A stretch of DNA of 45,947 nucleotides, taken from the sequence record OZ035778.1. One strand, written 5' to 3'. This document shows positions 12,632 to 38,492 of the stretch, piece by piece (the first letter of the stretch is position 1; the number at the start of each line of letters is the position of its first letter). Both the position numbers and the translations under genes were made by a program. Under the pieces are notes generated by a model. It ran no database searches and was not told the DNA's origin. It worked only from the letters and a program-made list of their open reading frames with translations. The DNA is from Vectrevirus NIC06P3.

Positions 12632-15259
12632 ATGCAAGATTTACATGCTATCCAGCTTCAATTAGAAGAAGAAATGTTTAACGGTGGCATTCGTCGCTTT
12701 GAAGCAGACCAACAGCGCCAAATTGCATCCGGTAACGAATCCGATACAGCTTGGAATCGCCGCTTATTATCCGAGTTAATCGCGCCAATGGCTGAAGGTA
12801 TTCAGGCTTATAAGGAAGAGTACGAAGGTAAAAGAGGCCGTGCACCGCGTGCATTAGCTTTCATTAACTGTGTAGAAAACGAAGTGGCAGCATATATCAC
12901 GATGAAAATCGTTATGGATATGCTGAACACGGATGTAACCTTGCAAGCGATAGCCATGAATGTAGCGGACCGCATCGAAGACCAAGTCCGCTTTAGCAAG
13001 CTGGAAGGTCACGCCGCAAAATACTTTGAGAAAGTTAAGAAGTCACTTAAGGCAAGTAAGACTAAAGCCTATCGCCATGCGCATAATGTAGCGGTAGTTG
13101 CTGAAAAGTCAGTGGCTGACCGTGACGCAGACTTCTCCCGCTGGGAGGCGTGGCCTAAAGATACCTTGCTGCAAATAGGCACTACCCTGCTTGAAATCTT
13201 AGAGAATAGTGTGTTCTTCAACGGTCAGCCTGTTTTCCTCCGCACCTTGCGCACTAATGGCGGCAAGCATGGCGTTTACTACTTACAGACTAGTGAACAC
13301 GTTGGCGAGTGGATAACTGCATTTAAAGAGCACGTAGCGCAGCTTAGTCCTGCCTATGCGCCTTGCGTTATCCCTCCGCGTCCGTGGGTGTCACCATTTA
13401 ACGGTGGTTTTCACACTGAGAGAGTGGCTAGTCGTATCCGTCTAGTTAAAGGCAACCGCGAGCACGTCCGCAAGCTAACCAAAAAGCAAATGCCAGCGGT
13501 TTACAAGGCTGTTAACGCTTTGCAGGCGACCAAGTGGCAGGTTAATAAGGAAGTGTTGCAGGTTGTTGAGGATGTTATCCGCCTAGACCTTGGTTATGGT
13601 GTGCCTTCCTTTAAGCCACTCATCGACCGCGAGAATAAGCCAGCTAATCCGGTTCCGCTTGAGTTCCAGCACCTGCGCGGTCGTGAACTGAAAGAAATGT
13701 TAACACCGGAACAATGGCAAGCCTTCATCAACTGGAAGGGTGAATGTACTAAGCTGTATACCGCAGAGACTAAGCGTGGCAGTAAGTCGGCGGCAACCGT
13801 TCGCATGGTCGGGCAAGCCCGTAAATACAGCCAGTTTGACGCTATTTATTTTGTATATGCACTGGATAGCCGTTCACGCGTTTATGCGCAATCTAGCACG
13901 CTCTCGCCGCAGTCAAACGACCTAGGCAAGGCATTGCTACGATTTACCGAAGGGCAGCCGCTAAACAGCTCTGAAGCGCTTAAATGGTTTTTGGTGAACG
14001 GGGCAAATAACTGGGGTTGGGATAAGAAAACCTTCGACGTCCGCACCGCTAATGTGCTGGATGGCGAATTTCAGGACATGTGCCGCGATATTGCAGCCGA
14101 TCCTCTGACCTTCACTCAATGGGTAAATGCCGATTCACCTTATGGGTTTCTTGCATGGTGCTTTGAGTACGCTCGCTATTTGGATGCACTGGAGGAAGGC
14201 ACACAAGATCAGTTCATGACACACCTGCCAGTACACCAAGACGGTAGCTGTTCCGGCATTCAGCACTATAGCGCGATGTTACGCGATGAAGTAGGTGCGA
14301 AAGCGGTAAACCTTAAGCCGTCCGATGAGCCGCAAGATATTTATGGGGCCGTTGCGCAAGTAGTTATCCAGAAGAACTATGCTTACATGAATGCAGATGA
14401 TGCAGAGACTTTCACGTCTGGCAGCGTCACCCTTACAGGTGCGGAATTGCGTAGCATGGCTAGCGCGTGGGATATGATAGGAATCACTCGCGGCTTAACC
14501 AAAAAGCCAGTGATGACCTTGCCTTACGGCTCCACCCGCTTAACCTGCCGTGAGTCGGTGATCGATTATATCGTTGATTTAGAAGAAAAAGAGGCACAAA
14601 GAGCTATTGCAGAAGGGCGGACGGCTAACCCTGTTCATCCCTTTGATAATGACCGTAAAGATTACTTAACTCCGGGCGCGGCGTATAACTATATGACCGC
14701 TCTTATCTGGCCTTCAATCTCTGAGGTTGTGAAAGCTCCGATAGTTGCCATGAAGATGATTAGGCAACTTGCACGCTTTGCAGCTAAAAGGAATGAAGGG
14801 TTAGAATACCCTCTGCCTACTGGCTTCATATTGCAACAAAAGATAATGGCTACCGATATGCTCCGCGTATCCACTTGTTTGATGGGTGAAATCAAGATGA
14901 GTCTACAGATTGAAACCGATGTGGTGGATGAAACGGCAATGATGGGTGCGGCTGCTCCTAACTTTGTGCATGGTCATGATGCTAGTCACCTTATCCTGAC
15001 TGTATGTGACCTCGTGGATAAAGGTATTACATCCATTGCAGTTATTCATGACTCTTTCGGCACTCATGCAGGACGTACCGCAGACTTGCGTGACAGCTTA
15101 AGGGCAGAAATGGTTAAGATGTATCAAAACCATAATGCCTTGCAAAACCTGCTGGATGTGCACGAAGAACGTTGGTTAGTAGACACCGGAATCCAAGTAC
15201 CCGAGCAAGGGGCGTTTGACCTTAACGAAATCTTAATATCTGACTATTGCTTCGCATAA
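12632..15259 (+). CDS. single-subunit DNA-dependent RNA polymerase, SP6-like
   Basis: 875 aa; near-colinear with the SP6 RNA polymerase as I recall it ([32 protein letters not shown]..., [15 protein letters not shown], ... FA C-terminus). Confidence 0.97.
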
Positions 15260-26966: not shown

Positions 26967-27966
26967 GCTTCGCAGCTTGTACAAAGACTCCGAGGTACTT
27001 GATGCAATCGAGCAAGCTACCGACGAGAAAGGTAATGTTAATTATAAGGAGATGGCACGGGTGCTATCGTGTCACCCTGTGGGTAAGAAGATTACCCGCC
27101 AGTTGGCTCGATACTGGCATGGTCAATTCAAGAAGACCAAGAAGAATGGTGATTATTACCAGACCCTTCTGCAAGAGGATAAGCGTATCAAAGAAGAGCG
27201 TAGGCTCAGGACTCCTGACCGCTACGAGGATTTGGCTATTGTACCATTGCCTGACTCGCCTCATAGAAGTGTACTGGTAATCCCCGACACCCATGCACCC
27301 TATGAGCATCCAGATACTTTAGAGTTCCTTGCAGCAGTGGCAGCACGTTATCGTCCAGACACAGTGGTACATCTGGGTGACGAGGCAGACAAACATGCCT
27401 TGTCATTCCACGACTCTGACCCCAATCTGGATAGTGCTGGAGTGGAGTTAGAGAAGGCTCGTGTATTCATGCACAAATTGCACAAGATGTTTCCTGTGAT
27501 GCGCCTGTGTCATTCTAACCACGGCTCTATGCACTTCCGCAAGGCAAGCGCTAAGGGCATCCCTGTGCAATATCTACGTACCTATCGTGAGGTCTTCTTC
27601 CCGAATGGAGGTGGCGATCAGTGGGATTGGCAGCATACGCATGTACTTGAGTTGCCGAATGGCGAACAGGTAGCGTTCAAGCATCAACCTGCTGGCGCTG
27701 TCCTAGCAGATGCAGCGCATGAGCGTATGAATCTTGTGTGTGGTCATCTGCATGGTAAGATGTCTGTGGAGTATGCACGTAATACTCATGAGCAGTATTG
27801 GGCTGTGCAGGGTGGCTGTCTGATTGATGAGTCGTCTCGTGCATTTGCCTATGGTCGTGAGTCTAAGTACAAGCCAGCATTAGGCTGTGTGGTTATTCTG
27901 GAGGGTGTACCACACATTGTCCCGATGCAGACCAATAGCGACAATCGCTGGGTTGGTAAGATTTAG
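26959..27966 (+). CDS. calcineurin-like metallophosphoesterase (phosphatase or SbcD/Mre11-like nuclease)
   Basis: IPDTHAPYEH, HLGDEAD, CHSNHGS and GHLHG metallophosphatase motifs; start uncertain (TTG 26959 after RBS GAAGGGGG). Confidence 0.65.
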   Translation: MGKLRSLYKDSEVLDAIEQATDEKGNVNYKEMARVLSCHPVGKKITRQLARYWHGQFKKTKKNGDYYQTLLQEDKRIKEERRLRTPDRYEDLAIVPLPDSPHRSVLVIPDTHAPYEHPDTLEFLAAVAARYRPDTVVHLGDEADKHALSFHDSDPNLDSAGVELEKARVFMHKLHKMFPVMRLCHSNHGSMHFRKASAKGIPVQYLRTYREVFFPNGGGDQWDWQHTHVLELPNGEQVAFKHQPAGAVLADAAHERMNLVCGHLHGKMSVEYARNTHEQYWAVQGGCLIDESSRAFAYGRESKYKPALGCVVILEGVPHIVPMQTNSDNRWVGKI

Positions 27967-27983
27967 TTGACACTATAGAACAA
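27961..27983 (+). promoter_or_regulatory. phage promoter
   Basis: ATTTAGTTGACACTATAGAACAA; followed by a 5' stem-loop AAGGGTA ... TACCCTT (27983-28006). Confidence 0.7.
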
Positions 27984-29809: not shown

Positions 29810-30007
29810 ATGTCTTTTGATAGCATGAAGGCAACTCGTGTCGTTGAGGTAGCAGAAGCCATCTTCGAAACTTTATCCTGCGGCATGGAAGTGCCATATA
29901 CTTTACTGGCTGATGCAGAAGAACTTGGTCTTTCTGTAGAAGCTATCCAAGAGAAGGTTGAAGAACTCTATGGTACAGACGAAGAAGAAACCGACGATTT
30001 CATTTGA
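29810..30007 (+). CDS. hypothetical acidic protein
   Basis: RBS AAAGGAGG; 65 aa. Confidence 0.45.
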   Translation: MSFDSMKATRVVEVAEAIFETLSCGMEVPYTLLADAEELGLSVEAIQEKVEELYGTDEEETDDFI

Positions 30008-30011
30008 GGGG

Positions 30012-30140
30012 ATGGAGATGCTTGAGATGATCCTCAAGCCTTCCTCTCCGAAAGTGACTAAGACTCATGAAGAGTTAATCGTAGATGAAGTGAAGCGTTA
30101 CATTATGGATTGTGTTAGAGCACAACTGGTGGTTCAATGA
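30012..30140 (+). CDS. small hypothetical protein
   Basis: RBS GAGGGGA; 42 aa; overlapping gene arrangement. Confidence 0.3.
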   Translation: MEMLEMILKPSSPKVTKTHEELIVDEVKRYIMDCVRAQLVVQ

Positions 30141-30598
30141 TACGTCCAGCTTCCTTCCTAGATATCCCTGAGATTATAAATCTTGGGAATAAGTATGTGG
30201 AAGAGGAAGTCAAGGTGGTTGCCCACCACTCATCCTCATGGAGTGCAGAACAAAGCGCACATAACCTTTGCGCATCTCTTAGTAGAGAAGATTTATTCCT
30301 ATGGGTGGCTGTAGATGAAGGGCAGATTGTAGGTTTTCTGTGGGCTGGCTATCATGAGTTAGCACCTTGGACACCTGTAAGAGTTGCCTCTGATATTCTC
30401 TTCTACATTGTACCAGAGAGGCGAGGGACACTGCTTGGTATGCGCCTTATCAAAGCATTAAAGCAATGGGCCAGTGAAAGCAAGTGTGCCGAGGTTCGCC
30501 TGTCTATCGCCTCTGGTATTAATGAAGAACGTGTCGGACGTATGTATAAGCGACTTGGCTTTGAACCGTTTGGCACTGTGTATAACCTGAAGTTCTAA
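30137..30598 (+). CDS. GNAT-family N-acetyltransferase (putative)
   Basis: IVGF ... VPERRGTLLGMRLIKAL ... YKRLGFEP resembles the GNAT acetyl-CoA-binding motif A region. Confidence 0.5.
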   Translation: MIRPASFLDIPEIINLGNKYVEEEVKVVAHHSSSWSAEQSAHNLCASLSREDLFLWVAVDEGQIVGFLWAGYHELAPWTPVRVASDILFYIVPERRGTLLGMRLIKALKQWASESKCAEVRLSIASGINEERVGRMYKRLGFEPFGTVYNLKF

Positions 30599-30607
30599 GG
30601 AGATAAC

Positions 30608-30814
30608 ATGGGTGTTGTAAAGAAAGCATTTAAGGCTGTAGGTCTTGCTCAAGATGCACCACGTATTGAAGCTAAAGTACCAGCGCAGCAGCTTGAGCGT
30701 CAACCTGAAACTGAAGCAGAAGATATCCAGATTGGTGCAGGGGATGATGCCACTGCCTCTGCAAAAGGTAAGCGCGGCCTTGTCCGTCCAGTGGCCTCTA
30801 GCCTGAAGGTGTAA
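30608..30814 (+). CDS. small virion protein, T7 gp6.7-like
   Basis: 68 aa; RBS AAGGAG; position immediately before the portal gene; weak composition similarity to gp6.7. Confidence 0.4.
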   Translation: MGVVKKAFKAVGLAQDAPRIEAKVPAQQLERQPETEAEDIQIGAGDDATASAKGKRGLVRPVASSLKV

Positions 30815-30815
30815 T

Positions 30816-32366
30816 ATGAAACAGAGCACAGATTTGGAGTATGGAGGTAAGCGGTCTAAGATACCTAAGCTATGGGAGAAGTTCTCCAATAAACGTAGCT
30901 CTTTCCTTGATAGGGCAAAGCATTACTCCAAATTAACCTTGCCCTATCTGATGAATGACAAAGGTGATAACGAGACTTCGCAGAATGGATGGCAGGGTGT
31001 AGGTGCTCAGGCAACTAATCATCTGGCCAACAAGCTAGCGCAAGTGCTATTCCCTGCGCAGCGTTCCTTCTTCCGTGTAGACTTAACTGCACAAGGTGAG
31101 AAGATTCTTAACCAGCGTGGCCTGAAGAAGACAGAACTAGCTACTATCTTTGCTCAAGTAGAAACACGGGCGATGAAAGAGTTAGAGCAACGTCAATTCC
31201 GTCCTGCTGTAGTAGAAGCATTCAAGCATCTTATTGTTGCTGGTAGCTGTATGCTATACAAGCCGAGTAAGGGTGCAATCAGTGCTATCCCAATGCATCA
31301 CTACGTAGTTAACCGTGACACCAATGGCGACCTGTTAGACATTATCTTACTGCAAGAGAAAGCCTTACGTACATTTGACCCAGCTACACGTGCTGTAGTG
31401 GAGGTAGGCTTGAAAGGTAAGAAGTGCAAGGAAGATGACAGCATTAAGCTGTACACACATGCTAAGTATCGTGGTGATGGCTTTTGGGAACTTAAGCAAT
31501 CTGCTGATGATATTCCTGTAGGTAAGGTGAGTAAAATCAAATCAGAAAAGCTACCTTTCATTCCACTGACTTGGAAGCGAAGCTATGGTGAGGATTGGGG
31601 TCGCCCTCTTGCAGAGGATTACTCCGGTGATTTGTTCGTTATCCAATTCCTATCTGAAGCAGTTGCCCGTGGTGCTGCACTGATGGCAGACATTAAGTAC
31701 CTGATTCGTCCGGGTGCTCAGACTGATGTTGACCACTTTGTTAACTCTGGCACTGGTGAAGTTGTAACTGGTGTAGAAGAAGACATCCATATTGTACAGT
31801 TAGGTAAGTACGCAGACCTCACACCTATTAGCGCGGTCCTAGAGGTGTACACTCGCCGTATTGGTGTTGTCTTCATGATGGAGACAATGACACGCCGTGA
31901 CGCCGAACGTGTTACTGCTGTAGAAATCCAGCGAGATGCGTTAGAGATTGAGCAGAACATGGGTGGTGTATATTCCCTCTTCGCTACTACTATGCAATCG
32001 CCAGTAGCGATGTGGGGTCTGCTGGAGGCAGGAGAGTCCTTCACTAGTGACCTAGTGGACCCTGTGATTATCACAGGTATTGAAGCTTTAGGACGCATGG
32101 CTGAGTTGGATAAACTGGCTAACTTCGCTCAGTATATGTCACTGCCATTACAATGGCCTGAGCCTGTCATAGCTGCCGTGAAGTGGCCTGACTATATGGA
32201 TTGGGTTCGTGGTCAAATCTCTGCTGAACTGCCATTCCTTAAATCGGCTGAAGAGATGGCACAAGAACAGGAAGCACAGATGCAAGCACAGCAAGCACAG
32301 ATGCTTGAAGAAGGTGTGGCTAAGGCTATACCGGGTGTAATTCAACAAGAACTTAAGGAGGCGTAA
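30816..32366 (+). CDS. portal (head-tail connector) protein, T7 gp8-like
   Basis: 516 aa; WQGVGAQATNHLANKLAQVLFP and ERVTAVEIQRDALEIEQNMGGVYS parallel T7 gp8 segments. Confidence 0.9.
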   Translation: MKQSTDLEYGGKRSKIPKLWEKFSNKRSSFLDRAKHYSKLTLPYLMNDKGDNETSQNGWQGVGAQATNHLANKLAQVLFPAQRSFFRVDLTAQGEKILNQRGLKKTELATIFAQVETRAMKELEQRQFRPAVVEAFKHLIVAGSCMLYKPSKGAISAIPMHHYVVNRDTNGDLLDIILLQEKALRTFDPATRAVVEVGLKGKKCKEDDSIKLYTHAKYRGDGFWELKQSADDIPVGKVSKIKSEKLPFIPLTWKRSYGEDWGRPLAEDYSGDLFVIQFLSEAVARGAALMADIKYLIRPGAQTDVDHFVNSGTGEVVTGVEEDIHIVQLGKYADLTPISAVLEVYTRRIGVVFMMETMTRRDAERVTAVEIQRDALEIEQNMGGVYSLFATTMQSPVAMWGLLEAGESFTSDLVDPVIITGIEALGRMAELDKLANFAQYMSLPLQWPEPVIAAVKWPDYMDWVRGQISAELPFLKSAEEMAQEQEAQMQAQQAQMLEEGVAKAIPGVIQQELKEA

Positions 32367-33290: not shown

Positions 33291-33316
33291 TATTTACTGG
33301 ACACTATAGAAGGGAG
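33291..33316 (+). promoter_or_regulatory. phage promoter (capsid)
   Basis: TATTTACTGGACACTATAGAAGGGAG; followed by 5' stem-loop AGGGAGA-AATA-TCTCCCT. Confidence 0.8.
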
Positions 33317-34577: not shown

Positions 34578-34612
34578 GCCCTATCTACCTTGCGTAGGTA
34601 GGGTTCTTTTTG
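34578..34612 (+). terminator. intrinsic terminator after the capsid gene
   Basis: CCCTATCTAC / GTAGGTAGGG stem with one G-U pair, then TTCTTTTT. Confidence 0.6.
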
Positions 34613-35362: not shown

Positions 35363-37764
35363 TGGAAGTACAAGGTTCATTAGGTAGACAAATCCAAGGG
35401 ATTAGCCAGCAGCCGCCAGCGGTACGCTTGGATGGTCAGTGCACAGCTATGGTTAATATGATACCTGATGTAGTGAATGGCACTCAATCCCGCATGGGTA
35501 CAACTCATATTGCAAAGTTACTTGATGCGGGGACTGATGATATGGCCACACACCATTATCGCAGAGGTGATGGTGATGAAGAGTATTTCTTCACATTGAA
35601 GAAAGGACAAGTCCCTGAGATATTCGATAAGTATGGGCGCAAATGTAATGTGACCTCACAAGATGCACCTATGACTTATTTGGCTGAGGTGATAAACCCA
35701 AGAGAAGATGTGCAATTTATGACGATAGCTGATGTTACTTTCATGCTTAACCGCAGGAAGGTAGTTAAAGCTAGTAACAGAAAGTCACCCAAAGTTGGAA
35801 ACAAAGCCATTGTGTTTTGTGCATATGGTCAATACGGTACATCTTATTCCATTATAATTAATGGTGTCAACGCTGCTAGTTTTAAAACACCAGATGGTGG
35901 AAGCGCAGAGCAGGTTGAACAAATTCGAACGGAACATATCACTTCGGAATTGTACTCTAAGTTGCAGCAATGGAGTGGAGTTGGTGATTATGAAATACAA
36001 AGAGACGGTACAAGTATATTTATAGAAAGACGTGATGGTGCAAGTTTTACAGTAACAACCACCGATGGTGCAAAGGGGAAAGACTTAGTGGCTATCAAGA
36101 ATAAGGTCAGCTCTACCGACCTCCTTCCTTCTCGTGCACCTGAAGGTTATAAGGTGCAAGTATGGCCTACTGGAAGCAAACCCGAGTCTCGTTATTGGTT
36201 GGAAGCAGAGCCAAAAGAGGGTAACTTAGTATCTTGGCAAGAGACGGTTGCTGCTGACGTATTGCTTGGTTTTGATAAAGGCACTATGCCTTATATCATT
36301 GAGCGTACGGGCATTATCGATGGTATTGCTCAATTTAAGATTAGGCAAGGCGATTGGGAAGATCGCAAGGTAGGTGATGACCTCACTAACCCTATGCCGT
36401 CTTTCATTGATGAAGAAGTACCTCAGACAATTGGCGGGATGTTCATGGTGCAGAACCGTTTATGCTTTACAGCAGGTGAGGCAGTCATTGCATCTCGTAC
36501 TTCCTACTTCTTTGACTTCTTTCGTTACACAGTGATCTCAGCTTTAGCTACTGACCCGTTTGACATCTTCTCAGATGCGAGTGAAGTTTACCAATTGAAA
36601 CATGCAGTGACTTTAGACGGTGCTACTGTGCTGTTCTCTGATAAATCTCAATTTATCTTGCCTGGAGATAAGCCTCTGGAGAAATCTAATGCCTTACTCA
36701 AACCTGTAACTACATTTGAGGTGAACAACAAAGTTAAGCCAGTTGCCACTGGTGAATCCGTAATGTTCGCTACAAACGATGGAGCATACTCTGGTGTACG
36801 AGAGTTCTATACAGACTCTTATAGTGATACTAAGAAGGCACAGGCAATCACAAGCCATGTGAATAAACTCATCGAAGGTAACATTATTAACATGGCAGCA
36901 AGCACTAATGTCAACCGCCTGCTTGTCACCACTGATAAGTATCATAATATAATTTACTGCTATGATTGGTTATGGCAGGGAACAGAACGTGTTCAATCAG
37001 CTTGGCACGTGTGGAAGTGGCCTTTGGGTACAAAGGTGAGAGGTATGTTTTATTCTGGTGAATTACTTTACCTGCTTCTGGAGCGAGGCAATGGTGTATA
37101 TCTGGAGAAGATGGATATGGGAGATGCACTGACCTATGGTTTAAATGACCGTATCCGAATGGACAGGCAGGCAGAGTTAACCTTCAAGCATTTCAAAGCA
37201 GAAGATGAGTGGGTATCTGAACCACTCCCTTGGGTTCCTACTAACCCAGAACTCTTGGATTGCATCTTAATAGAAGGCTGGGATTCATATATTGGCGGCT
37301 CTTTCTTATTCAAGTACAACCCCGGTGATAACACCTTATCTACAACTTTTGATATGTATGATGATAACCACGTAAAAGCAAAGGTCATTGTTGGTCAGAT
37401 TTACCCTCAAGAGTTTGAACCTACACCTGTGGTTATCAGAGACAATCAAGACCGTGTATCCTATATTGATGTACCAGTTGTTGGATTGGTCCACCTTAAC
37501 CTCGACATGTACCCTGATTTCTCCGTAGAAGTTAAGAACATTAAGAGTGGTAAAGTACGTAGAGTGTTAGCATCAAACCGCATAGGTGGTGCTCTAAACA
37601 ATACGGTAGGTTATGTTGAACCAAGAGAAGGTGTCTTCAGATTTCCACTGAGAGCTAAGAGTACGGATGTTGTTTATAGTATTATTGTAGAGTCACCTCA
37701 CACATTCCAGCTTCGTGATATTGAGTGGGAAGGAAGCTACAATCCAACCAAAAGGAGGGTCTAA
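35362..37764 (+). CDS. tail tubular protein B (T7 gp12-like)
   Basis: About 800 aa; gene order after tail tube A. Confidence 0.8.
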   Translation: MEVQGSLGRQIQGISQQPPAVRLDGQCTAMVNMIPDVVNGTQSRMGTTHIAKLLDAGTDDMATHHYRRGDGDEEYFFTLKKGQVPEIFDKYGRKCNVTSQDAPMTYLAEVINPREDVQFMTIADVTFMLNRRKVVKASNRKSPKVGNKAIVFCAYGQYGTSYSIIINGVNAASFKTPDGGSAEQVEQIRTEHITSELYSKLQQWSGVGDYEIQRDGTSIFIERRDGASFTVTTTDGAKGKDLVAIKNKVSSTDLLPSRAPEGYKVQVWPTGSKPESRYWLEAEPKEGNLVSWQETVAADVLLGFDKGTMPYIIERTGIIDGIAQFKIRQGDWEDRKVGDDLTNPMPSFIDEEVPQTIGGMFMVQNRLCFTAGEAVIASRTSYFFDFFRYTVISALATDPFDIFSDASEVYQLKHAVTLDGATVLFSDKSQFILPGDKPLEKSNALLKPVTTFEVNNKVKPVATGESVMFATNDGAYSGVREFYTDSYSDTKKAQAITSHVNKLIEGNIINMAASTNVNRLLVTTDKYHNIIYCYDWLWQGTERVQSAWHVWKWPLGTKVRGMFYSGELLYLLLERGNGVYLEKMDMGDALTYGLNDRIRMDRQAELTFKHFKAEDEWVSEPLPWVPTNPELLDCILIEGWDSYIGGSFLFKYNPGDNTLSTTFDMYDDNHVKAKVIVGQIYPQEFEPTPVVIRDNQDRVSYIDVPVVGLVHLNLDMYPDFSVEVKNIKSGKVRRVLASNRIGGALNNTVGYVEPREGVFRFPLRAKSTDVVYSIIVESPHTFQLRDIEWEGSYNPTKRRV

Positions 37765-38492
37765 TGGCTATAGGTTCAGCCGTTATGTCTGGTATGTCCT
37801 CTCTGGGTAGTATGTTTGCAGGTAGCGGTGCAGCAGCCGCTGCAGGTGGTACTGCCGCCGCAGCAGGTGGTGGAGGTTTACTAGGTTCCGTGGGAAGTTT
37901 CCTAAGTGGTTCCACTGGTGGCTTCTCCAATACAGGCTTGCTTAGTGCAGGTATGCAAGGTCTTGGTCTTCTAGGTAATCTTTTTGGTGGAAGTGATGAA
38001 GCCAAAGCTATGAAGAAAGCTCAGGAGGAGCAATGGCGGCAGCAGTTAATTGCTACACAAGAGGCATACAAAACGGTAGCAGATGCAGAACGCTCTGCTG
38101 CTAAACAGTACCATGCAGACGCAATAAGCAATCAGGCTTCACTACTACAGCAGCGAGCACAGGTTGCATTACTTGCAGGTGCTACGGGAACTGGTGGTAA
38201 CTCTGTGTCTTCTATGCTGAATGATTTGGCAGCAGAGGGAGGGAGGAATCAGAGTACAATTATTGATAACTATGAGAATCAGAAGATTAATTTCACCAAC
38301 CAGCTTAAGTCCATTCAACGTGGTGGACAGATGCAGATGCGTGAGTTTAGGAAACCTTCTGCCGTAAGTACCTTGGTTCAAGGTATTCCAAGTCTTGCAT
38401 CTGCCTATGTAATGGGTAGCAAGTCTGGTACGGCATTAGGTAAAGCCTTAACTGATTCTCGTACATATTCATCTGGAACAAGAGGTATTTAA
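37764..38492 (+). CDS. internal virion protein (Gly/Ala-rich N-terminus)
   Basis: RBS AAAGGAGGG; first of three internal core genes by order. Confidence 0.6.
   Translation: MAIGSAVMSGMSSLGSMFAGSGAAAAAGGTAAAAGGGGLLGSVGSFLSGSTGGFSNTGLLSAGMQGLGLLGNLFGGSDEAKAMKKAQEEQWRQQLIATQEAYKTVADAERSAAKQYHADAISNQASLLQQRAQVALLAGATGTGGNSVSSMLNDLAAEGGRNQSTIIDNYENQKINFTNQLKSIQRGGQMQMREFRKPSAVSTLVQGIPSLASAYVMGSKSGTALGKALTDSRTYSSGTRGI

Follow-up and report, generated by a model that had tools for sequence, protein, structure and literature searches.

A conserved GNAT-fold acetyltransferase gene ahead of the gp7.3-like and portal genes of Vectrevirus NIC06P3

The acetyltransferase gene and its product

The 45,947-nucleotide stretch of Vectrevirus NIC06P3 analyzed here in full (OZ035778.1, hereafter the window) carries on its + strand, at 30137..30598, a GNAT N-acetyltransferase gene that starts with ATG, spans 153 codons plus a stop, and encodes a 17.4 kDa product. 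An initial annotation made from the letters alone had claimed a 153-residue open reading frame (ORF) at 30137-30598, which is matched exactly, and the strings it quoted are all present in the translation (IVGF at residues 64-67, VPERRGTLLGMRLIKAL at 92-108 and RLGFEP at 139-144). Overall, we consider it likely, and with good confidence, that this protein is a conserved GNAT-fold N-acetyltransferase of the SP6/K1E-like podoviruses, with acetyl-CoA-dependent N-acetyl transfer as its general chemistry; this confidence covers the fold and the chemistry, and does not extend to the target.

The ORF is a real gene under purifying selection, with a ratio of non-synonymous to synonymous changes (dN/dS, Nei-Gojobori) of 0.10 against Escherichia phage K1E (23 synonymous and 9 non-synonymous differences) and of 0.20 against the SP6 ortholog. 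Its ATG overlaps the TGA of an upstream 60-codon ORF (ATGA at 30137-30140), a GGTGG lies 4 nt upstream of the start codon, and the choice of this start is supported by the N-terminus MIRPA, which family alignments show to be common to nearly all homologs. An antisense ORF of 143 codons (30458..30889, − strand) overlaps the gp7.3-like gene that follows as well as the 3′ end of the acetyltransferase gene; we took it as a mechanical ORF rather than a gene, since every gene annotated in this region of K1E runs along the + strand and the conserved frame is that of the + strand.

Three Pfam GNAT models score above their cut-offs on the protein (Acetyltransf_1, 39.2 bits vs. 20.7; Acetyltransf_7, 38.5 vs. 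27; Acetyltransf_10, 26.8 vs. 23.6), and PHROG 1249 (“acetyltransferase”) matches it across residues 1-151 (E 9e-54). Searched against the PDB as a single sequence, it retrieved 4j3g as best match (E 1e-6) and only GNAT acetyltransferases among the significant matches, while a profile of the 31-sequence family retrieved DpA (E 2e-9) and 4j3g (E 7e-9) followed by PA4866, PAT and AAC(6′), again all GNATs. An AlphaFold2 model built from the 31-sequence alignment (mean pLDDT 93.3, pTM 0.88) displays the GNAT topology β1-α1-α2-β2-β3-β4-α3-β5-α4-β6-β7, with these elements at residues 2-4, 7-28, 37-49, 53-60, 63-76, 79-91, 100-114, 119-123, 130-139, 143-145 and 148-152, respectively. Foldseek comparison of this model to the PDB gave 832 matches at E ≤ 0.001, of which the best 50 are all acetyltransferases (Naa60, PAT/BAR/ArsN, 4j3g, DpA, SSAT and AAC; TM 0.57-0.81). 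The initial proposal of a GNAT is thus borne out by profiles, PDB matches and predicted fold, including by the profile searches that might have placed the protein in a non-GNAT family and that favor GNAT instead.

In GNAT enzymes, the pyrophosphate of acetyl-CoA is held by motif A (Q/R-x-x-G-x-G/A, following β4), where the contacts are made by main-chain amides. The family alignments, the alignment to 4j3g and PA4866, and the model place the corresponding loop between β4 and α3, at codons 93-101 (P-E-R-R-G-T-L-L-G; 30413..30439, + strand). Among the 31 family members, which extend down to 27% identity, R96 and G97 of this loop are invariant, as are D9, G66 and W111, and position 101 is G or A (S in one sequence). 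Nearly invariant residues comprise R3, A5, Y20, E23, W69, W78, A84, D86, Y90, P93, L104, S123, S126, G127, L140 and G141. D86 in strand β4 (30392..30394, + strand) is the candidate general base: its alignment partner in PA4866 is the Glu within VEHSVYV, a position that we take to be that of the general-base Glu of PAT/BAR enzymes. Y137 in helix α4 (within RMYKRLGF; 30545..30547, + strand) stands at the usual GNAT general-acid position and is the candidate acid. Acetyl-CoA would then be bound in the cleft between β4-α3 and β5-α4 and its acetyl group passed to a primary amine, with D86 acting through a water molecule as base and Y137 as acid. The conserved acidic helix α1 (Y20-V-E-E-E-V), together with the conserved Trp residues, suggests a basic acceptor.

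Relatives, neighbors and a recurrent gene order

Over the 1.2 kb around the gene, DNA identity is ~93% both with K1E and with many further Vectrevirus genomes, at least 80% of this region being covered in 76 of 78 matching records, which agrees with the initial description of a lytic podovirus (K1E belongs to Vectrevirus, Molineuxvirinae, Autographiviridae). In length the window corresponds to a complete phage genome, one that is permuted with respect to the K1E record (gene at ~21.3 kb in K1E, 30.1 kb here). Orthologs are K1E gene 27 (YP_425004.1), SP6p28 (NP_853588.1) and K1-5 gp27 (YP_654128.1), all in PHROG 1249 and all labeled “acetyltransferase” in RefSeq; gene, family and annotation are already known in these phages and in dozens of relatives, and as an annotation the finding therefore adds nothing. 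K1E gp27 has the same 153-residue length and ~94-95% protein identity (8 of 153 residues differ), SP6p28 is also of 153 residues and 75% identical, and K1-5 gp27 is 83% identical but reaches 175 residues through a 22-residue duplication-insertion in the α1-α2 loop, which the NIC06P3 protein lacks; all other differences are point substitutions. In this insertion, HHSASWNAEQSA is repeated on either side of a brief unrelated segment, ITFVHLLIET, which resembles the same DNA read in an alternative frame (the window ORF 30183..30314 reads ...HITFAHLLVEK...); the loop is also the least confident part of the AlphaFold2 model.

Beyond these close relatives, tblastn matched the protein in 233 phage records, whose hosts include Escherichia, Klebsiella, Salmonella, Proteus, Erwinia, Pectobacterium and Vibrio, as well as Pseudomonas syringae, Marinomonas, Shewanella, Aeromonas, Ralstonia and Roseobacter. 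When 1.84 billion cluster representatives were searched with a family profile, 1275 proteins came back at E ≤ 1e-10, nearly all of ~150 residues, and the contigs with the closer homologs never exceed ~46 kb, as expected of virulent podoviruses and not of bacterial chromosomes. Several metagenomic proteins (P0079, P0083, P0091 and P0106) are tandem GNAT-GNAT fusions. Domain fusions in distant relatives were considered as a clue to function and proved uninformative, the long proteins being GNAT-GNAT duplications, one of them with an unidentifiable N-terminal part.

The upstream 60-codon ORF (29958..30140, + strand) is a homolog of K1E gene 26 (PHROG 6507). Downstream, a 68-codon gene of the T7 gp7.3 family (30608..30814, + strand; PHROG 1320, E 1.7e-10) starts 9 nt past the GNAT stop with its own GGAG, and is followed by the portal (head-tail connector) gene (30816..32366, + strand; Pfam Head-tail_con, E 2e-88; K1E gene 29), with which the large structural genes begin. 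Within the portal-nozzle channel, gp7.3-like proteins are the small ejection or “wedge” components (PMC11784390; bioRxiv 10.64898/2026.05.18.726046). The acetyltransferase had been described as directly upstream of the structural module, which holds in general terms, although the 68-codon gp7.3-family gene separates it from the portal. The neighbors are identical in K1E, K1-5 and SP6, in the order ligase, two small ORFs, GNAT, 68-69-residue protein and portal.

The window contains 14 matches to an SP6/K1E-type promoter, vs. 1.46 expected by chance, of which 12 lie on the coding (+) strand (..GACACTATAG/A; at 124, 2229, 4578, 11596, 15355, 18371, 19218, 22782, 23551, 24826, 27964 and 33295). 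The nearest upstream of the acetyltransferase gene is at 27964..27978 (+ strand, TAGTTGACACTATAG) and the next one downstream on this strand at 33295-33309, with no SP6-type match found between gene 23 (DUF3310), the ligase gene, the two small ORFs, the GNAT gene, the 68-codon gene, and the portal and scaffold genes. As no promoter match separates these genes, they are probably co-transcribed, and we infer that the promoter match at 27964 probably drives a unit that runs from gene 23 and ligase through genes 25-26, GNAT, gp7.3-like and portal to scaffold. A strong terminator-like hairpin is found at 34578-34604, after the capsid gene.

A second “acetyltransferase” label exists in this group of phages, as the UAB_Phi78 paper gives a homolog of K1E gp42 as “putative acetyl-CoA acetyltransferase” (PMC4837284). 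The putative counterpart of K1E gp42 in the window, taken as such from its place after the terminase gene, is a 95-codon ORF at 2684-2971; it has no Pfam match, and the label thus looks unfounded.

What is new here is the context of the gene, i.e., a slot in which GNAT, gp7.3-like and portal genes recur in this order across the Autographiviridae. The order GNAT, small protein (58-69 residues) and portal is found in K1E, SP6, K1-5 and Era103 (Molineuxvirinae), and also in phi-A318 and Njord (Colwellvirinae), in ECBP5 (Gajwadongvirus) and in two metagenomic contigs, with the small gene starting −4 to +9 nt from the GNAT stop in these loci. A different and very distant GNAT family, PHROG 3986, fills the slot in LUZ19 (Rac, gp28), phiNV3, MR5, J8-65 and the gh-1-like phage M1.1, where the two genes overlap by up to 35 nt. 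Taken together, the order spans Molineuxvirinae, Colwellvirinae, Gajwadongvirus, Krylovirinae, Bonnellvirus and Ghunavirus, with PHROGs 1249 and 3986 sharing the slot. A GNAT gene thus keeps a fixed place where the virion genes begin, in several subfamilies of T7-like phages whose hosts belong to many genera.

The gp7.3-like proteins of these loci are rich in Lys and Arg at both ends, and 15 of the 16 compared begin with M-G, M-S or M-A, such that removal of Met would expose a small N-terminal residue; past its Met, the gp7.3-like protein of the window starts with GVVKKAFKAV. In the SP6-like set, an acidic core (E-D-I/V-Q-x-G) and a basic C-terminal motif (K/R-G-K-R-x-L-x-R-P) are kept, with RRR or RKK elsewhere in place of the latter.

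A second arrangement places distant members of the NIC06P3 GNAT family further into the virion block. Roseobacter phage CRP-4 gp41 (2489-2947 of its locus, L010; PHROG 1249, E 6e-23; TM 0.86 to the AlphaFold2 model) sits between the gene for a 714-residue tail protein and large putative internal virion protein genes, and one contig (L017, 2529-3430) carries two adjacent GNAT genes after the nozzle gene and ends 1 kb further. In phiRIO-1-like phages, an acetyltransferase-like (IVP-A) gene likewise lies between the tail nozzle and internal virion protein genes (Hardies et al., PMC4819975). The placement in CRP-4 and L017 is thus that of the IVP-A slot, equivalent to the slot of T7 gp13 and distinct from the pre-portal one. 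In the window, PHROG 805 (“internal virion protein”) is matched by a 255-codon ORF with a GTG start (37725..38492).

Candidate acceptors

The initial annotation had left the function open, and this stands: no substrate-specific model was reached, and a literature search on the SP6/K1E acetyltransferase family, which also covered anti-defense GNATs and T7 gene 7, found no functional study of this family, no paper giving the SP6/K1E protein a function, and nothing about what T7 gp7 does at the molecular level. Among NCBIfam models, ArsN1 scored 26.7 bits (cut-off 170), a second PAT/ArsN1-type model 25.4 (cut-off 210), AAC(6′) 26 (cut-off 140, other AAC(6′) models being lower still) and RimI (TIGR01575) 23.4 (cut-off 86.4). 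Substrate-specific assignments were accordingly rejected for ArsN1, AAC(6′), RimI, MshD and Sat3 (14-27 bits vs. cut-offs of 86-360), and with every specific model below its cut-off the substrate is not transferable by homology. The suggestion that the enzyme inactivates an aminoglycoside-like compound found no specific support, AAC(6′) models scoring 26 bits against cut-offs of at least 140, and a PADLOC search for defense systems returned nothing meaningful.

Our leading, if tentative, candidates for the acceptor are phage ejection or virion proteins that are rich in Lys and encoded nearby (gp7.3-like or internal virion proteins), followed by host proteins and then by small amines. Ejection proteins were ranked first on the basis of the two independent gene arrangements beside ejection genes, the acidic helix α1 and Trp residues of the GNAT, and the Lys/Arg-rich character and M-G or M-S/A starts of the small proteins. 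The GNAT could then have a role in assembly or infectivity, like that ascribed to T7 gp13 (IVP-A). By analogy, the protein is probably produced during infection but left out of the particle: T7 gp13 is not retained in virions, and the Rac-like “gp7” of phiPsa17 is absent from the one virion proteome checked for a slot GNAT (PMC4517105).

Several points weigh against an active enzyme directed at ejection proteins. Where the textbook motif A has its middle Gly, the family has variable residues, and position 137, Tyr in the majority of members, is occasionally Phe; binding through main-chain amides may make the lost Gly tolerable, and these two departures leave catalysis likely, judging from the residues that are kept, but not certain. 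The link to virion assembly is one of association, drawn from gene neighborhood. The fold neighbors, for their part, were rejected as a guide to the acceptor, as the Foldseek and PDB matches spread over Naa60 (protein N-termini), PAT/BAR/ArsN (amino acids), DpA/SSAT (polyamines) and aminoglycoside enzymes. The loss of the middle Gly would suit a GNAT-fold assembly factor that acts by binding, as a chaperone of ejection proteins, without catalysis. This may hold for T7 gp13, described as a non-virion morphogenesis protein (PMC4819975), with a GNAT fold and no recognizable motif A, and for T7 gp7, which has D for the motif A Arg. For the NIC06P3 protein we consider it very unlikely, as R96-G97, D86, Y90 and S123...S126-G127 are kept down to 27% identity in a manner typical of active enzymes, and as the protein scores above the thresholds of general GNAT models.

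Acetylation of host rather than phage proteins, late in the middle phase and shutting host functions such as RNA polymerase through cleavage of its alpha subunit, is suggested by Rac of LUZ19, the only characterized GNAT of the slot: expressed alone, it causes RpoA, the alpha subunit of RNA polymerase in P. aeruginosa, to be cleaved and lysine acetylation to rise, and mutation of its acetyl-CoA pocket abolishes the effect (PMC7552054). The two families are moreover related at the profile level, with a 96.6% hhalign probability between their alignments (E 5e-10, 115 columns, 14% identity), and a 5-sequence Rac profile matches only the GNAT ORF out of 452 window ORFs (E 5e-6). We nevertheless find such a host takeover somewhat doubtful for NIC06P3. 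By BLASTP its GNAT has no similarity to Rac (E 5.1), it does not match PHROG 3986, and the profiles that do align are only 14% identical. The Rac effect itself is genus-specific even within the Krylovirinae, the LKA1 homolog in the same place leaving RpoA intact (PMC7552054). Furthermore, the Rac gene of phiKMV-like phages follows the phage RNA polymerase gene, unlike in the SP6-like arrangement where the polymerase (putative, 875-codon ORF at 12632..15259) is early, and family members in the Zobellviridae lie inside the tail and internal-protein module. A small amine as acceptor, universal or defense-related (putrescine, spermidine, an amino-acid analog or an aminoglycoside-like compound, with adjustment of the polyamine pool or inactivation of an inhibitor as the outcome) would fit the best family-profile match in the PDB, the diaminopropane acetyltransferase DpA, ahead of SSAT, PA4866, PAT/ArsN and AAC(6′), as well as the sub-threshold ranking of ArsN1 and AAC(6′) at the top of the NCBIfam matches; conserved Y20, E23/E24, W69, W78 and D86 would suit a cationic amine. 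It is rather unlikely all the same, given how far below cut-off these models stay, and as R82, in the β3-β4 region that in PAT enzymes presumably holds the substrate-binding arginines, is not conserved in the family. A resistance gene would also be expected to occur sporadically, whereas the slot is fixed in Molineuxvirinae, Colwellvirinae and Gajwadongvirus and over many host genera, with virion genes and not metabolic ones as neighbors. Acetylation of the ejection proteins comes first in our ranking, and the choice has some practical bearing, in that K1E/K1-5-type phages serve against K1-capsulated E. coli and the enzyme would modify either host proteins or the ejection machinery.

Comparison with Rac, T7 proteins and cellular GNATs

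Rac (gp28, PHROG 3986, ~150 residues) shares the slot of the NIC06P3 GNAT, followed at once by a small gp7.3-like virion gene and then by the portal, and in the two profiles the Y-V/I of β4 and the P-x-x-R of motif A align. Four of five Rac-family proteins also match PHROG 1249 (E 1.5e-5 to 5e-4), their own PHROG 3986 being the best. Membership of the NIC06P3 protein in the Rac family was rejected, with BLASTP negative, PHROGs different and similarity confined to the profile level; we take Rac as its closest functional analog, a related GNAT in the same position but not of the same family.

T7 gene 7 (“host range”, PHROG 2746; L012 1631-2032) occupies the slot before gene 7.3. PHROG 2746 is the next-best match after PHROG 3986 for three Rac-family proteins (J8-65 gp30, E 2e-12; phiNV3, 1e-6; MR5, 4e-6), and BLASTP aligns J8-65 gp30 with T7 gp7 (E 1e-4) such that T7 “NPEADSKG” falls on the motif A loop, with D where motif A has R. 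T7 gp7 itself has no Pfam match, and as a single sequence it is not significant against the profiles of the window family and the Rac family, the link being drawn from the PHROG cross-matches and the one BLASTP alignment. It probably belongs to the slot lineage, from which it would have diverged with replacement of the motif A arginine.

T7 gp13 (IVP-A; PF11090, PHROG 308; gene 13 at L015 3308-3724) resembles the slot GNATs in being a small GNAT-fold protein encoded beside ejection-protein genes, and differs in that its consensus lacks a recognizable motif A or acetyl-CoA loop. An acetyltransferase match by HHpred had been reported for this non-virion morphogenesis protein (Hardies et al., PMC4819975), a remark now confirmed by the GNAT fold of our model (pLDDT 93.6) of a protein 97% identical to it (P0210): the 50 PDB neighbors listed for this model are all GNAT-type N-acetyltransferases, with RimI best. 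Homology between T7 gp13 and the NIC06P3 family was rejected, the hhalign alignment being full-length and in a plausible register but not counted as evidence at a probability of 6.8% (not significant), and the gp13 profile matched no window ORF.

More speculatively, GNAT-fold morphogenesis factors might form an old lineage that travels with the ejection genes of podoviruses and in which the NIC06P3 GNAT would have kept its catalytic activity, acetylating the gp7.3-like wedge protein, which is Lys-rich, or internal virion proteins, at lysines or at the N-terminus, although we judge this decidedly unlikely as a whole. Such a lineage would take in T7 gene 7 along with the GNATs that fill the slot in SP6-, phiKMV- and gh-1-like phages, and possibly T7 gp13/IVP-A, and acetylation would control procapsid loading or the release of wedge and internal virion proteins upon ejection. 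If true, this could account for the “host range” label given to gene 7 and gene 7.3 in the T7 record. Weighing against an assembly role of this kind, in our main reading too, are the lack of a significant match to gp13, the motif A R-G that both T7 gp7 and gp13 lack, such that their roles may not be catalytic, and the Ghunaviruses, which carry both a slot GNAT and gp13, so that the two are not simple substitutes.

Finally, small cellular GNATs (DpA, PA4866/PAT/BAR/ArsN, SSAT, AAC(6′), Naa60 and RimI) are alike in fold and in the architecture of the cofactor site (TM 0.7-0.8), at 15-24% identity to the NIC06P3 protein.

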